A stretch of DNA of 64,000 bases, from the IMG/VR virus record IMGVR_UViG_3300044701_003393; one strand, written 5' to 3'. Source of the stretch: an uncultured virus (IMG/VR IMGVR_UViG_3300044701_003393). Lineage: Duplodnaviria; Heunggongvirae; Uroviricota; Caudoviricetes. The translations under genes were made by a program, and so were the position numbers. Numbering within the stretch: the first letter of the stretch is position 1; every line of letters starts with the position of its first letter. The notes beneath the pieces were generated by a model, which saw only the letters and a program-made list of their open reading frames with translations, ran no database searches and had not been told where the DNA came from. This document shows positions 996 to 57,678 of the stretch, piece after piece.

Positions 996-1219
996 TGCGA
1001 GGAGCAATCCTCTCATTAGAGATAAGATGTATTACTAAAAGATTCCAAAAATGGTTCTTTCATTAATGCTTCATCTCTAATCGGGTAATACAGTCCGATT
1101 TCAAAGAGAAATAATCCCAGACGATTCACCTATGGTCGTCTGTGGGCTCGATTCGTCTGGCATTATGTCAGGGAGGAATTGGATTGTATTGCTCTCCGAT
1201 TAACCTTTAGGAGAAAAAA
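996..1219 (+). ncRNA. Candidate structured 5' leader RNA, family unknown
   Basis: GAGGA-GCAA-TCCTC hairpin (999-1012); long hairpin 1015-1081; long stem 1078-1102/1176-1202 with G-U pairs; internal hairpins. Confidence 0.6.
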
Positions 1220-2047
1220 ATGGCAGATCCAGTTTATATGCCCGATCCTTGGGCAGCACTCTCAGCACAGCACTCAGACATCCGTAGAGAAGGTTCTGTA
1301 GAGCGTGGTGAGATCCGTTACGATGTTGCTACTCGTTCCGCTGACAACCGTTATGCTAATGCTATCGGTCAAGGCGATATTCGTAGAGAATTAGCAAATG
1401 GTTTTGGTGATACCAGATACGCTATTGCTGAGCATTCAGAAGCAACCAACCGTGATGTTCTGAACGTAGGACATAACACAGCAGTTAAAGTAGACGAAGC
1501 TGCTGATAAAATTCAGCAAAGAGCTACTGATTTCTATATTTCTGGTCAGGCAAGAGATTTTGATCAATCCCGTGATCTTGCTGCTTTAAGAGCAACTCAA
1601 GACCTTGCTGCTCAGAAACTCAGCAGTGAAATTCTTCTTGCCACTGAGAAGACTGCTACTGCTGCTGCACTTGAGTCCGCTAAGGTTGCTGCTGCTGTAG
1701 CACTTGGACAGTCACAACTCAGCAAAGAGATTGCTGAGAGCAAGTATGATCTCAGCAAGCAGGTTTCTTATGAAAATGAGAAGACCCGTGACCTCATCAA
1801 TTCTCTCAAGAATGATGAACTCAATCGTATGCTGATTGAGCGTAACACTGACCTCAACCACTGCCGCCACGACTATTGGGGTGCCAGAGATGGTCTCTTC
1901 AATAGCCAGTTCGCAGCACTGTCTTCACAAGTTAACTCTCAGTTAAATGCTTTAAACAGTCAGATTGCTGAGACCCGTCAGGGTATGGTTAACTTCGGAA
2001 CCATGGCTGGTGTTGGTCAGTCATCAACCAGCAATGCTGTACGCTGA
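1220..2047 (+). CDS. Helical, Ala-rich protein with 11-residue repeats, 275 aa
   Basis: AGGAG RBS; repeats DIRREGSVERG/EIRYDVATRSA/DNRYANAIGQG/DIRRELANGFG/DTRYAIAEHSE. Confidence 0.85.
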   Translation: MADPVYMPDPWAALSAQHSDIRREGSVERGEIRYDVATRSADNRYANAIGQGDIRRELANGFGDTRYAIAEHSEATNRDVLNVGHNTAVKVDEAADKIQQRATDFYISGQARDFDQSRDLAALRATQDLAAQKLSSEILLATEKTATAAALESAKVAAAVALGQSQLSKEIAESKYDLSKQVSYENEKTRDLINSLKNDELNRMLIERNTDLNHCRHDYWGARDGLFNSQFAALSSQVNSQLNALNSQIAETRQGMVNFGTMAGVGQSSTSNAVR

Positions 2048-5129: not shown

Positions 5130-5249
5130 TTAAAAGTACATCATCGAAAGAGTGAATACAACAAACACAATAACTGTAAATATCATAATTCCTACACCAG
5201 CCCAAACCACCCAGGGCTCCATAGGTTCGTAATCGCGGTTATGAGACAT
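5130..5249 (-). CDS. Small single-TM protein, 39 aa
   Basis: MSHNRDYEPMEPWVVWAGVGIMIFTVIVFVVFTLSMMYF; a second 21-aa hydrophobic ORF follows at 5060-5125. Confidence 0.5.
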   Translation of the reverse strand: MSHNRDYEPMEPWVVWAGVGIMIFTVIVFVVFTLSMMYF

Positions 5250-5823
5250 AAAATTTGAGGTTTTCTAAAAGTGTTTGAAGTTCTTGTAGGGTGGCGTCAT
5301 TTTTGAGAGTGTTTGCTCTATTACTTATGACCCACACATTACCTTTTATGTATCCCTTTGAGGGGTCAATACGATCTAAAGATGGAGAATTTCCTTGCTG
5401 ACTTCCCTTACCACGATGACATTCTAATGGTATTCCAAGAAGAGGACACTTATCTGGAATAATAATATCTTTTTGTTCTATTGCGAAGTCTAATCCTTTC
5501 TGCTTTGCTCTATATTTTGCTCTAGACCACATGGCAGATACTTCATCAATACCTTTCTCCCTCCTTTCTTGATGAAGTTCTTTTAATCTACATCCACAAG
5601 ATTTTATTTCTGCTTTAGATCCTATTATATAATCCTTACGAATTTTGTCCTTTATATTACCACATTCACACTCACATTTAAAATAAATGCTTTTCTTATC
5701 ACTATACTGTTCTAAAATAGTAAGTCTCCCACAAGTCTGACCGACATATGAGAGACTTGATTTAGGGCGACCCCCTTTTAATCGGGGGTCATTTTTTAAT
5801 CCTTTATTCCAAACCATTAGCAT
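5239..5823 (-). mobile_element. Free-standing HNH homing endonuclease downstream of psbD
   Basis: WNKG motif, CECECG/SCGC zinc motifs, SLDRIDPSKGYIKGNVWVISNRAN nuclease motif. Confidence 0.8.
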
Positions 5824-7287: not shown

Positions 7288-7659
7288 TCAATAAGCATTT
7301 AGATATTCAATCATTTTTTGAAGTGTTTGAATATTATCTCCAACAAGACCCAGTGCAGTATTGCAGTTATTGCAGAGGACACCGCGAACCTTATTTGTAG
7401 AGTGGCAGTGGTCTATACATTTCTTTGTTAGTTCCACATTACATATCTGACAGTTCTCATTTTTCATAAGTTCTGCGTATTGCTGTTCGGTAAGTTTGAA
7501 CTTCCTACGCATAAATTCGTGAGGTTTATAGTATTGCCTACGATTTTCAGTAGAACACTTTTTACATTTTGGTTGCAACCCAACACTACCAGAAGAATAA
7601 GTTCGTTTATGAAAAGAACTTTCTGGTAGAGATTGATTACACTTAGAACAAACTTTCAT
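7288..7659 (-). mobile_element. Endonuclease VII-family free-standing homing endonuclease (F-CphI-like)
   Basis: CQIC...IDHCH...VRGVLCNNCN motif; directly downstream of psbA; own TATAAATA late promoter at 7686-7693. Confidence 0.85.
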
Positions 7660-53491: not shown

Positions 53492-54485
53492 AACTAAATT
53501 CCTTTCGTGCGATTTCGTCCAACTGTTGCATTACTTCTTCAGTGAAATATACTTCAGGTTCTTTCAGAATCTGTTTAGCATAAATCTTCTTACCATCAAT
53601 CTCATAGCGTCCTGCTACATTCTTCCAAAGTCCTCCAATCTCTCCAAGTTCAAGAAGACCGTAGTAACGATCAAGACCACGCTCATCATAATAAAGACGA
53701 ACCTCAACATCTTTATTCTCTTTACTCAAACGCGATTTAGCAGTCTTAGCCTTGATAATATTTCCGACCACTTCCGTTCCATCCTTTTCTTTTTTCTTTG
53801 AGAGATAAATGATTGTAGAGGCTGCGTATTTGAGTCCAGAACCTCCTCCCATTTCTTTCGTTGGTACATAAGCTCCGATGACATCGTATGTATGATTTGT
53901 GACAATGAGTGGAACATTTGCTTGACCTAGTTTAAGTGTTAGCATTCGGAAAGCACCTTTGATAAGTTGCGATTTAGTCATATCACGAACTTGCTTATCA
54001 TTCAGTGCATCAGTAATCTCTTTCTCTGTAGAAAGCATACCCAGAGAGTCTAACACAAACATGCAAGGACTACGTTCCCCTTCGGGTTTCTTCATATAAA
54101 GATCAACTGCTTTAAGAGCCTTACTGCGGAATTCTTCTACGGTGACAACATTAACCACGACAAGGCGTGATGTGTCAATGCCGCGTGACTCCAGGAGAGA
54201 CTTTGTAATGGCAGCCTCAGTATCAAAATAGAGACAATAACCATCGGGATTATTATCAAGAAAATTCTTAACCACGGCGAGACTGAAGAAAGTCTTTCCA
54301 GTAGAAGACTCTCCAGCAATAGCAGTAATTTTATTCCCAGATACACCACCAAAGATGCTACCCGAAACCAGTGCATTAAAAATATACGAACCCGTGTCAA
54401 CATAGATCTCCGTCTCATCAATATCCGATGCTAACTTTGTATAGTCATCACCAATTTCTTTTACAATATCTTTAAGAAAATCCAT
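53478..54485 (-). CDS. uvsX: RecA-like recombinase UvsX
   Basis: AGESSTGKT, LDSLGML, MGGGSG. Confidence 0.95.
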   Translation of the reverse strand: MDFLKDIVKEIGDDYTKLASDIDETEIYVDTGSYIFNALVSGSIFGGVSGNKITAIAGESSTGKTFFSLAVVKNFLDNNPDGYCLYFDTEAAITKSLLESRGIDTSRLVVVNVVTVEEFRSKALKAVDLYMKKPEGERSPCMFVLDSLGMLSTEKEITDALNDKQVRDMTKSQLIKGAFRMLTLKLGQANVPLIVTNHTYDVIGAYVPTKEMGGGSGLKYAASTIIYLSKKKEKDGTEVVGNIIKAKTAKSRLSKENKDVEVRLYYDERGLDRYYGLLELGEIGGLWKNVAGRYEIDGKKIYAKQILKEPEVYFTEEVMQQLDEIARKEFSYGES

Positions 54486-55843
54486 TAGGCAAAAAATGAA
54501 TCAAGGTTTACTGTCTTTTCCATATTCCACCCAATAATATCAAGAATAACTTTGAGTGGTTCTAGAAATGCTTTCTCAAATTGTAATTCATAATCTATGT
54601 ATTTGTCAAGATTCAGTTCCTTGGGAAACTCCTGAATAAATGAGATTACATTCTCATGAATCGTATTTGGTTTCTTGAGGTAAACAAACTTGATCTTTTC
54701 TCCGTTCTGAATCAAAGAATATTTTCCAGTCAGGTTATTTTCTTTGACATAATAATTAAAGAGAAGTGCTCCACGAACATGAATCGGAGTTCCCTTTACA
54801 TAAATTTGAGAGTGTGATGTATATTTCTGAACGTCAGACGCAGAACGTGGGAATGAGATTTCTTCAGGTGGTAATTTCTTAAATTTATTGCGGAAATCAT
54901 CAATAAACTGAATCATATCATCTTCACTTCCACTCATCAGAATATTAAATGCTTCTTTCAGCATCTTACGACAAGGAGCAGGAGTAGAAGATTTGATTGC
55001 TTCAATACCCTTGATTTTCAGTTTGGGTGATTCATATCGAACACCTTCACTATCCCATACACTCAGAATGTATCGTTTCTTCGCAGTCCAAATACCACGT
55101 TCAGCAATACACTCACGCTTCATAATCATCTTCTGATCGTAAGCGTTTACATAATTCGCCAATTCTTGATAAGAACTTTCAATATATTTTTCAAGTTCCA
55201 CTTGACACACCTTATCAAGGAACGAAACAATGTCTTGAGTAGTTTTCTCTCTTCCTTTGAATACAGTTTCAACCAAAGGACCCATATTGAGATAGATAGA
55301 ATCAGTATCAGAAGCAATAACATAATCTTCACCATCTGTTTTAAGAATTTTGTTTATGTAGGAGTTCATCTTATTCATAATCCACTGAATTGAAACCTTA
55401 CCGGAAAGAGTAATCGCTTCAGCGTTTGCTAGTTTATAGTAACGGAAATACTGATTGCCAATAGCACCATAAGCAGAGTTAAGCTGAATCTTCCTCGCCA
55501 TTTGGATGTTATTACATCGCGCAATTTCCTTTTCCAACTCTTTTGTTTTAGTCTTCTCATACTGTTGTTCTGCAGCAAGCATCTTCTTCTTGAAGATCAC
55601 ACGTTCATTGTAGATCTTCTCCATCAGTTCAGGAAGAAAACCATTTACTCTACGATAAAGTGCTCCGTTTGCAGTAATAGTCAAATTGACTTTTCGCAAA
55701 GGTTCTAAATCCAATTCTTGATTAAGAAGTTTATCAACATTCACTTGATTAGAAAGTTCTCTTACTTTCTTAAGTGCTTCCAATTCCTCTTTAATTTCTT
55801 GAGGAGACATTTGACGAACATCTTTCCACATATTATTATTCAT
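54485..55843 (-). CDS. gp43: DNA polymerase gp43, C-terminal half (fingers, palm, thumb)
   Basis: ANGALY, KIQLNSAYG, ASDTDS, KKRY. Confidence 0.93.
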   Translation of the reverse strand: MNNNMWKDVRQMSPQEIKEELEALKKVRELSNQVNVDKLLNQELDLEPLRKVNLTITANGALYRRVNGFLPELMEKIYNERVIFKKKMLAAEQQYEKTKTKELEKEIARCNNIQMARKIQLNSAYGAIGNQYFRYYKLANAEAITLSGKVSIQWIMNKMNSYINKILKTDGEDYVIASDTDSIYLNMGPLVETVFKGREKTTQDIVSFLDKVCQVELEKYIESSYQELANYVNAYDQKMIMKRECIAERGIWTAKKRYILSVWDSEGVRYESPKLKIKGIEAIKSSTPAPCRKMLKEAFNILMSGSEDDMIQFIDDFRNKFKKLPPEEISFPRSASDVQKYTSHSQIYVKGTPIHVRGALLFNYYVKENNLTGKYSLIQNGEKIKFVYLKKPNTIHENVISFIQEFPKELNLDKYIDYELQFEKAFLEPLKVILDIIGWNMEKTVNLDSFFA

Positions 55844-56379
55844 AGTATTTTAGTAATTTTTTTAATACCAAACTCTTTTAATCTTTGTTTAATCAATACT
55901 TCACTACAATTATAATGTTCGGCAATTTGCTTCCTTGTCTTATTCTCAATAATATACAATTTTCTCAAATCTTCACTTTCAATTTTATAAGTTCTATTTT
56001 GTCTCATAGTTTCTCTATACCTTTGACGGGTATTTTCACTCATAGGATATGATTTACCTTTTACTCTACCACCACTTTTTTTTGAAATATTATAAAGTGT
56101 TCCACCTTCACTTATCAATTTATACTTTTCAATAAGTTCTTCTTCTAAGACTAAACATTCTTTTTTTGTTCCCTCAAAAATCTTTTCAACAAATGGTTCT
56201 CTTCCCGACAAAAAAATAGATTTTATTTTACCATAGAAAGATGGATAATTTGCATCATATGGCATATAAGAACTTGGTTTTAAGTGAGCCCACATTCTAT
56301 ACCCCTGCCCCATACCAACATAAAAAACTTTATCATCATCTTTGTATTGATAAACATACATAGGATACTCTCTTTTCAT
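55840..56379 (-). mobile_element. GIY-YIG-type homing endonuclease inserted within gp43
   Basis: YVYQY...FYVGMG..R..H, conserved Glu, LYN, C-terminal HTH; TATAAATA at 56399-56406. Confidence 0.8.
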
Positions 56380-56406: not shown

Positions 56407-57678
56407 TTATAGCATACTTTCGAGTTCTGCAATCCTCTTATTTACATCATCCATACTCACAAGAGTTTCTGGGGATATTGAGTATTGCATAATAAGGTGG
56501 GGATAAAGGCTGTTCAAATCGAAACTTACAACATAATCATACATACCAGAAATAGGTTCTTTTACATAAGCACCTTCATACTTTTCATCTTTCTTAGTCT
56601 TGTTCTTTGGGGGGATTACAATGTTCTTCTTCTTGAGATATGTGTAGATGATATTATCCCACATACGAACCTGATAAAACACATCAGCATAATTCACCTT
56701 TGCGTCATATGCCATCGTCAGAGCAAGTTCAATCAGTTTCATCTTGTCTTCCAGACGGTCAACAAGTTCTACGTCAATGATGTTATATTCAATGAACTTC
56801 TGCCATCCTTTGGTGTAGAAATCTTTGAATGTATCAAACTCAGAGTGATCCAGTTTTTTCTGTCCCAGTTCCACTTCAGCAATATAATCTAGACGATAAG
56901 ATTCCTGAACTTTATAAGTAAATTTCTTATAAAGATCCAAATAGTCAAGTTGAGTCAAACCACCTACATCAAATGTGGTGTGCTTGCGTCCATTGATGAA
57001 TACTTCACCCTCAGTCACAAGTCCCCAGTTAGAGAACCGTTTCATCAGTTTCTCACCAAGAACACGATTCAGTCTCTTACAGATATAAGGAACGTCATAC
57101 ATCTGGATGTTCCATCCTGTAATCACATCAGGAACATCCACCATCCAATAATTGATGAAGTGATTGAGAAGTTCATACTCAGAGGGGCAATGATGATAAG
57201 TCACATCCTTGCGGGTGTTATTGAATGGTTTAACTCCCCAAGTAATAATCTTCTTTGTTGTATAATCCTGAATAGAGATAGAAAGGATTTCTTCAGATGC
57301 AGATTCTACATCAGGGAATCCTGCTTCTGATGCAACCTCAATATCTAGAGTTACAAGTTTGATTTTACTGATATCAAACTTAATTTCATCGTCCGGATAT
57401 TTTTCCGAAATGTATTGGTAGATATAACGGTCATTTCCGTAGATCTCAAATCCATCTACACTTTCATACTTATTATAAAATTCACGACAGTCACGAACTG
57501 TTCCCGGATTTACTGGTTCAACTGCTTCGCCACTTAATGTTCGATATTTAGAATCTTTTTTAGTTTTCACATAAAGAGTTGGGAAGAACTCATCTCTTGT
57601 TTCAAATCTTTTTCCATTTTCTACCCCACGAACCAAAAACTGATTTCCAATCAATTGAACATTAGTATAAAATCTCAT
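56407..57678 (-). CDS. gp43: DNA polymerase gp43, N-terminal half (exonuclease plus motif A)
   Basis: LDIEV, TGWNI..YD, YNIIDV, SFDLNSLYPH..ISPET. Confidence 0.93.
   Translation of the reverse strand: MRFYTNVQLIGNQFLVRGVENGKRFETRDEFFPTLYVKTKKDSKYRTLSGEAVEPVNPGTVRDCREFYNKYESVDGFEIYGNDRYIYQYISEKYPDDEIKFDISKIKLVTLDIEVASEAGFPDVESASEEILSISIQDYTTKKIITWGVKPFNNTRKDVTYHHCPSEYELLNHFINYWMVDVPDVITGWNIQMYDVPYICKRLNRVLGEKLMKRFSNWGLVTEGEVFINGRKHTTFDVGGLTQLDYLDLYKKFTYKVQESYRLDYIAEVELGQKKLDHSEFDTFKDFYTKGWQKFIEYNIIDVELVDRLEDKMKLIELALTMAYDAKVNYADVFYQVRMWDNIIYTYLKKKNIVIPPKNKTKKDEKYEGAYVKEPISGMYDYVVSFDLNSLYPHLIMQYSISPETLVSMDDVNKRIAELESML

Follow-up and report, generated by a model that had tools for sequence, protein, structure and literature searches.

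A leader RNA of about 220 nt with a conserved and covarying structure on the plus strand precedes gene 1 of an uncultured T4-like cyanophage. It lies near one end of a stretch of 64,000 nucleotides, called the window in the following, which belongs to the IMG/VR virus record IMGVR_UViG_3300044701_003393. Gene 1 (1220-2047, plus strand) is an open reading frame (ORF) of 275 codons, and the small ORF on the other side of the leader ends at 974. The leader holds a fixed place between a late promoter and the start codon of gene 1, and it is tied exclusively to this gene. With a little better than even confidence, we read it as the cis-acting 5' untranslated leader of a late phage message, which would stabilise the message and tune its translation.

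The evidence for the fold comes from 25 distinct full-length leaders, left after duplicate removal and after the exclusion of six further matches that are cut by contig ends. They were aligned with MAFFT without being fitted to a structure (alignment A3), and the 71 pairs of the window's minimum-energy fold were counted in this alignment. Paired cells make up 92.3% of 1743 cells and 36.2-48.8% in controls in which the structure is slid by one to three columns; taking the structure from one member's own fold inflates this difference, and changes on both sides of a pair are the stronger evidence. Such changes are found at 23 of the 71 pairs (6-10 in the slid controls) and in 73 cells (13-15 in the slid controls). 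None of 500 shuffles reached the observed value in four of five measures; for the remaining measure, further pair types, 58 of the 500 did. In addition, RNAalifold independently gave the helices P1, P2b/c and P3 from an earlier alignment of 14 sequences. The fold is a real, evolutionarily conserved, covarying RNA structure, in agreement with the original prediction, made from the window's letters, of a structured plus-strand leader some 220 nt long upstream of gene 1. Reading the minus strand instead lowers pairing to 85.0%, and the 176 G-U cells exceed the 48 A-C cells; the RNA is therefore the plus strand, which bears out the strand preference that had been read from the G-U pairs.

The window's own RNA is unusually stable as well. 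Its plus strand folds with -85.1 kcal/mol between 975 and 1225 (z -6.27), an energy that none of 200 shuffles equals, and the minus strand of the same stretch with -64.7 kcal/mol (z -3.66). When the 255-nt stretch ending 33 nt into each gene is compared, gene 1 has -88.5 kcal/mol and 17 other window genes with a Shine-Dalgarno sequence (SD) have a median of -49.6 kcal/mol. Both hairpins of the original prediction are there and belong to the minimum-energy fold: the GCAA-tetraloop hairpin at 999-1012 (GAGGA-GCAA-UCCUC) and the long hairpin at 1015-1081.

We divide the leader (about 223 nt, 997-1219 with the start at about 997 placed as explained below; all coordinates are on the plus strand) into the hairpins P1, P2 and P3. 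P1 (999-1012) has a stem of 5 bp; 93.6% of its cells are paired, and changes on both sides are seen at four of its five pairs. Its loop varies among the leaders (GCAA, GAAA, AAAA, GAGA, UUUA and GUCCCA). A role of P1 in a GNRA tetraloop-receptor contact was rejected, as neither a GNRA loop nor UAUGG is conserved.

P2 (1015-1081) is an irregular hairpin with the outer helix P2a (1015-1021/1075-1081), followed by P2b (1026-1034/1064-1072) and P2c (1038-1046/1053-1060). Changes on both sides occur at three pairs of P2a and, in L022 and L028, at two pairs of P2c. P2b has none; seven of its eight pairs are invariant and a conserved pyrimidine-pyrimidine mismatch lies inside it. Only 4-6 of the 25 leaders retain the window's two innermost pairs (1022-1023 with 1073-1074), and seven of the 25 have an extra hairpin of 50-59 nt between P2b and P2a on the 3' side. 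In the other 18 leaders there are three serial hairpins without a multi-helix junction.

P3 (1085-1192) is long and also irregular. Changes on both sides are found at half of the pairs of P3a (9 of 18; 1085-1102/1175-1192) and at two pairs of P3c (1129-1135/1140-1146). P3b (1108-1127/1150-1169) combines three such pairs with nine invariant ones, and 97.2% of its cells are paired; its pair 1122:1155 changes from C-G to G-U in eight leaders. The lower part of P3b is similar in plan to P2b, each having G-C, A-U, a conserved mismatch and then an A/U-rich run, with the difference that the mismatch is pyrimidine-pyrimidine in P2b and A-G in P3b. From this pattern of substitutions, P1 would be a structure-only 5' clamp with a covarying stem and a free loop, and P3a, P3c and P2a appear to be structure-only likewise.

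The stacked pairs number about 35-40 in P3 and about 22 in P2, and conserved internal mismatches occur in both. RNase III processing is known from the leaders of phage T7 and lambda N, and helices of this length whose inner sequence is invariant, as for a recognised site, would also suit an RNase III-type site at which cleavage in P2 or P3 matures the message and alters its stability or translation. However, any binding factor explains the invariance equally well, and we consider such a processing site very unlikely to be the role of the leader.

The position of the leader behind a late promoter is as regular as its fold. The octamer at 984-991 of the window is CATAAATA; among the 25 leaders, 20 have TATAAATA, four have ACTAAATA and one, the window, has CATAAATA. 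It is separated from the first paired base of P1 by 5-8 nt, with 7 nt in 19 of the 25. Mean pairwise identity (14 sequences, 91 pairs) is 0.39 upstream of the octamer versus 0.77 from the octamer to the start codon. A TATAAATA-like element near -10, the fixed spacing and the T4-like replication genes in the window together characterise a T4-type late transcription unit. The core ATAAATA is not enriched in the window (23 sites versus 23.8 expected in shuffles), and all 23 sites are on the strand of the local genes. In T4, transcription starts about 6-7 nt after the late promoter octamer. If the same rule holds here, transcription would start at about 997 and the stem of P1 would be at about +1 to +2, and because of this start P1 would be a 5'-terminal hairpin. 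Sites for gp55-type late promoters are described for cyanomyoviruses in an excerpt of an earlier study (PMC5931967).

Conservation continues without a break from the promoter to the ATG. A leader peptide was ruled out, since each of the 25 leaders has stops in every one of its three frames and no peptide conservation was found among them. Three database proteins (P0026, P0086 and P0120) have N-terminal extensions of 22-30 residues that equal the leader translated in differing frames; these extensions are probably wrong start calls. We counted 74 leader-bearing loci, including duplicates of the same contigs, ten of which are cut by contig ends and therefore untestable. All of the 64 testable loci have a gene 1 homologue directly downstream of the leader. 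Neither the sequence nor a terminator scan gave a terminator between P3 and the start codon, and a strong ribosome-binding site follows. This makes a stand-alone non-coding RNA that merely adjoins gene 1, which the original prediction had left as an option, extremely improbable, also as no second copy was found elsewhere in the window or in the contigs scanned. Its fold is strong and self-contained, as such an RNA would require, and 10 of the 74 loci are cut within or just after the leader, so that it is often assembled apart from the gene; the same gene nevertheless follows wherever the contig is long enough.

The original prediction had further proposed several mutually exclusive pairings, which would make the leader a switch. 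The long stem at 1078-1102 with 1176-1202 is conserved as P3a, and its outer seven pairs are not. These outer pairs (1078-1084 with 1196-1202) are perfect in the window, L001, L090 and L100, but family-wide they are formed in 64.7% of cells, and 388 of 500 shuffles are as good. CAGACGA (1118-1124) was thought to choose between two copies of TCGTCTG. The minimum-energy fold contains its pairing with the second copy (1153-1159), where a C-to-G change is matched by a G-to-U change in all eight leaders having it. The pairing with the first copy is kept in part, in 85.6% of cells and with little covariation, and its central pair (columns 210:229) is non-standard in 6 of the 25 leaders. GAGCAAT with ATTGCTC did not hold: 63.4% of cells are paired, slid controls reach up to 60% and 92 of 500 shuffles are as good. 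TCTCC (1193-1197) does cover the SD (GGAGA, 1210-1214) in the window's minimum-energy fold, but this is not conserved and no better than controls, with 64.5% of cells family-wide and 129 of 500 shuffles as good. As the last two pairings are not conserved and that with the first TCGTCTG copy is only partly kept, the alignment does not bear out that the leader is switchable.

A riboswitch would be expected to have a conserved exclusive pairing that links its sensor to the SD or to a terminator; three of the proposed pairings lie at 63.4-64.7% of cells, no better than controls, and no pairing of this type was found among them. We also ran a strict stack scan for pseudoknots, which gave only invariant complementarities or those between purine and pyrimidine tracts, and no convincing covariation outside the main helices. 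There is one alternative hairpin, CUGGCA-UUA-UGUCAG (1157-1171), that is possible in 98% of cells, and all substitutions in it fit both this hairpin and P3b. It has no change on both sides, versus compensatory changes at three P3b pairs. Moreover, UAAUGCY on the 3' side of P2b has its complement in GGCAUUA on the 3' side of P3b, and each of the seven possible pairs is matched in 85% or more of cells. As an alternative to recognition by a factor, dual pairing constraints could thus be what keeps P2b and P3b invariant.

We weighed these observations for a small-molecule riboswitch in which P2 and P3 bind a ligand and shift the pairing around the SD. The core of the leader is strongly conserved and has nucleotides that never vary at internal loops and mismatches, the peripheral hairpin is limited to seven of the 25 leaders, as in many riboswitch families, the SD is predicted to be masked and the substitutions in 1157-1171 suit two folds. 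Cyanophages also have the other orphan candidates wcaG and manA, according to an excerpt of PMC2864571, and wcaG is present in the window. Against this stand the serial hairpins without a junction in most leaders, the lack of a supported pseudoknot, the poor conservation of the proposed expression-platform pairings and the alternative hairpin without a change on both sides. The regulated gene is moreover a late gene for a rod-like protein and not a metabolic or transport gene, and its context suggests no ligand. We judge a small-molecule riboswitch to be quite unlikely. A broader form of the idea, which we hold to be unlikely too, is that the leader is a genuine ligand- or protein-responsive switch of a new class found only in lake cyanophages, which reads the state of the cell or the level of the rod protein. 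Here the two near-invariant, mismatch-bearing helices would be the sensor and would time the production of an accessory virion fibre, and the invariance of P2b and P3b would reflect competing pairings.

The ribosome-binding region shows another regularity. In 24 of the 25 leaders a pyrimidine tract (CUUUCUUUUCCUU or similar) stands directly before AAGGAGA; the window is without most of this tract. It alone, versus its 24 relatives, is without about 10 nt before the SD, and one contig in run X1 has a longer form at the same place with CTTTCCCTTA inserted behind 1208. Partition-function folding from the predicted start to +33 gave the window's SD a probability of 0.02 to be unpaired, and the homologues a median of 0.03; the 22 rows behind this median include the truncated L071, which is not valid. 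For the 17 other window genes with an SD the median is 0.43, and none is at or below 0.05. The SD is predicted to be paired in all 21 leaders examined: 12 use the UUUUCC tract next to it, three (the window among them) a UCUCC further upstream, three the 3' strand of P1 and three other stretches. Masking of the SD is thus a consistent prediction of the folding model, and the window's UCUCC (1193-1197) may stand in for the lost pyrimidine tract. The 3' strand of P2c was considered as an anti-SD and rejected, since L022 and L028 keep P2c by compensatory changes that abolish the complementarity to the SD.

On the reading that we favour, a cis-acting leader of a late message, T4-type late machinery would start the transcript about 6-7 nt after CATAAATA, with P1 at its very 5' end. 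P1 would be followed by P2, P3, a short single-stranded linker, the pyrimidine tract (shortened here), the strong SD and the start codon (1220-1222) of the gene for the rod-like protein, the first in a late cassette that would be fibre-like. Together, the hairpin at the 5' end and the compact body behind it could protect the message against host RNase E where decay depends on the 5' end. P2b and lower P3b may act together as a tandem docking platform for a trans-acting factor, which would more probably be a protein than a metabolite. With the SD weakly paired to nearby pyrimidines, translation would be tuned rather than simply switched on. We thus infer the start of transcription, the stabilising role, the factor and the masking of the SD from the observed structure and its place. 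Excerpts of three papers report that phage infection raises host RNase E, that duplexes protect mRNA and that cyanobacterial RNase E senses 5' ends (PMC9692554, PMC3113571, PMC10939160).

Several points weigh against this interpretation. The 75 invariant positions and the helices that never vary exceed the needs of a stabiliser alone. The 25 sequences are related and come from one phage clade, so some of the changes counted as covariation are inherited and were counted repeatedly. The local SD hairpin shows no covariation, being paired in 89.5% of cells versus 58-82% in slid registers, and the partner of the SD differs among the relatives, so that its masking is a thermodynamic prediction only. 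Finally, the gene can exist without the leader, because the homologues L016 and L018 have none and L024 has a leader remnant only.

As to its distribution, 52 IMG/VR loci encode relatives of the gene 1 protein. With blastn and nhmmer the leader is detectable upstream of relatives with at least about 45% protein identity, and it was not found by these searches upstream of more distant ones. Degenerate patterns made independently for P2 and for P3 both identified 29-31 viral contigs, nearly the same ones each time and with a single site in each. In addition, the P2 pattern occurs in 18 metagenome stretches and at no site in 185,579 prokaryote species genomes. There is a single copy of the leader within the window. 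Neither the leader DNA nor the gene 1 protein had a match among isolate phage records. The best DNA holders among public runs are labelled as freshwater or lake metagenomes. In the metatranscriptome run X22, three short contigs with a depth of 2.5-8 fall in the coding region of a relative, and none lies over 800-1222; being contigs and not reads, they are uninformative on transcription of the leader.

Leader identity to the window is 0.77-0.89 over aligned columns, and 75 of 242 alignment columns are invariant. Its conservation equals that of the coding sequence and exceeds it in relatives with a more divergent protein, such as L029, where identity to the window is 0.85 for the leader, 0.72 for the coding DNA and 0.55 for the protein. 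These values speak for purifying selection on the leader. Ten of the 74 leader-bearing loci (L058, L063, L071, L075, L083-L085, L089, L091 and L092) end inside the leader or at most 21 nt after it. Assemblies may break at the conserved leader where related strains co-occur.

The protein encoded by gene 1 has no Pfam family and matches the unnamed phrog_9415 of PHROGs weakly. A search for relatives gave 924 of 8000 scored candidates at E <= 0.001, and among the 120 matches listed all are unnamed or called "hypothetical protein". PDB sequences gave no function and the ESM Atlas only unnamed viral clusters. An AlphaFold model based on 30 relatives predicts a single long helix from residue 10 to 262 and a disordered tail, with a mean pLDDT of 80.2 and a pTM of 0.26. 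The last approximately 25 residues (…ETRQGMVNFGTMAGVGQSSTSNNVR) are almost invariant across phages that are otherwise 33-45% identical. The N-terminal part of the rod protein has a variable number of DIRRE-containing repeats (alignment A4).

Gene 2 of the cassette is collagen-like and gene 3 encodes a papain-family peptidase. After gene 1, a G+C-rich hairpin followed by a U run is found in all 12 homologous loci examined; the terminator scan places this terminator-like hairpin at 2067-2089 in the window. This hairpin sits inside a longer stem (about 2051-2064 with 2108-2120), in which the SD and start codon of gene 2 are buried as well; the stretch 2048-2124 folds with -29 kcal/mol (z -2.87). 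All 12 loci fold into this nested structure, and its G+C hairpin covaries. Judging by these folds, translation of gene 2 appears to be coupled to that of gene 1, along with read-through of the terminator.

Because no ATAAATA core lies between gene 1 and gene 2, the only plus-strand site in the window being at 985, gene 2 would depend on read-through. An RNA that modifies the polymerase for antitermination is known as put in phage HK022. Two conserved stem-loops directly after the promoter and a terminator-like hairpin ahead of the collagen-like gene in every locus examined would be in line with a leader that, in the same way, lets the polymerase read through the terminator between genes 1 and 2. 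Yet the leader has no similarity to any Rfam antiterminator family, and partial read-through needs no special RNA. Host-type boxA is GAACCTTGAAAA (PMC8461337), and no match to it was found in the leader at up to two mismatches. We regard antitermination as highly improbable.

More distant homologues of gene 1 have leaders of other kinds. L030 (2818-3003), L031 (2702-2934) and L032 (2757-2946) have TATAAATA followed by leaders of about 180-230 nt that are unrelated in sequence to the one described here, with folding z of -3.05, -2.47 and -5.27, respectively. L031 and L032 share a block of their own, CGGTA(A/G)CGGCGACG...CACCGT...AGTCTT. Rfam gave no match for the leaders of L031 and L032 at an E-value of up to 0.01 and none for that of L030 at gathering thresholds. 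In other large phages, gene 1 homologues are preceded by a TTTAAGTA-like element, with a single hairpin a few bases behind it and the SD after that. This element, about 60-90 nt before the start codon in L035, L036, L038, L040, L042, L043, L048 and L051, may be another promoter type with a 5'-terminal hairpin. The stem base in these leaders is often (A/T)(T)(G/A)AGAG...CTCT(C/A)A(T), reminiscent of P2a (TTAGAG/CTCTAA). Structured leaders thus recur on gene 1 in non-homologous forms, which argues for a cis role tied to the expression of this gene.

The window is part of a T4-like cyanomyovirus. Gene calls found gp43, gp44/62, gp45, gp41, gp61 and UvsX, as well as a transaldolase (talC), two photosystem II reaction-centre genes (psbA among them), ribonucleotide reductase, Hsp20 and a RegA-like translational repressor. 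An Rfam scan of the same window gave the catalogued RNAs wcaG and PhotoRC-II and nine tRNAs. Two ORFs (56407-57675 and 54485-55840) encode the gp43-type DNA polymerase, with an ORF that resembles homing endonucleases between them (55840-56376). Several more HNH or homing endonuclease ORFs lie at various places in the window, for example those beside the two photosystem II genes (5239-5820 and 7288-7656).

The leader matches no catalogued family. On 984-1225, Rfam 15 gave no hit at gathering thresholds, in line with the original prediction, which had recognised no family, and on 20 homologous loci it gave only tRNAs at these thresholds and nothing on the leader. The best sub-threshold scores, with the gathering score after the slash, are those of snoJ33 (19.2/45 bits), freshwater-2 (17.4/49.9) and manA-II (16.2/100, on the opposite strand). 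The core strings were in no paper in the open full text, and the literature on cyanophage leader motifs gave no description of this leader; supplementary files and non-open papers were outside both searches. The leader is a new RNA family within a known kind, and it is well supported as an RNA.

Of two known kinds of message element that come close to the leader, the first is the 5'-terminal stabilising stem-loop of bacterial and phage mRNAs, for which the ompA leader is an example. P1 resembles it in being predicted at about 0-2 nt from the presumed 5' end and in having a covarying stem and a variable loop, but P2 and P3 are far more conserved in sequence than a mere stabiliser needs. The second is the inhibitory hairpin at the translation initiation regions of phage T4 late genes. 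The likeness lies in an SD that is predicted to be paired in the late message of a T4-like phage; however, its partner here is a weak, non-covarying pyrimidine tract of variable position, and the large conserved domain lies upstream and apart. Among catalogued families, freshwater-2 (RF02980) is the best cis-regulatory sub-threshold match (1156-1222). It shares an almost identical ribosome-binding stretch (AAGGAGAAAAcAAAUG) and a freshwater origin, but the score of the match derives from the ribosome-binding site and a single short hairpin, and none of the 20 homologous loci reaches the gathering score.

Besides freshwater-2, the nearest RNAs in kind are wcaG (RF01761), manA (RF01745) and PhotoRC-II (RF01717), three cis-regulatory orphan motifs from T4-like cyanophages (Weinberg et al. 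2010, PMC2864571). As far as the excerpt of that paper describes them, they are likewise conserved, covarying RNAs in presumed 5' untranslated regions of cyanomyovirus genes without a known ligand or partner. Our leader has no sequence or model similarity to them, and their covariance models miss it. It is about twice as long as these motifs, consists of serial hairpins and follows a late promoter. They serve metabolic or photosynthesis genes, whereas the leader serves the gene for a rod-like protein. It thus adds to this cyanophage set a large, well-supported leader RNA on a late and probably structural gene, from abundant uncultured lake phages. With about 220 nt, defined helices and named compensatory pairs, it is a compact object for studying how the stability and translation of messages are controlled late in infection by T4-like cyanophages. 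If its invariant helices bind a ligand or a protein, the leader would be a new class of regulatory RNA, and if they bind neither, it would be a clear natural example of a multi-hairpin stabilising leader.

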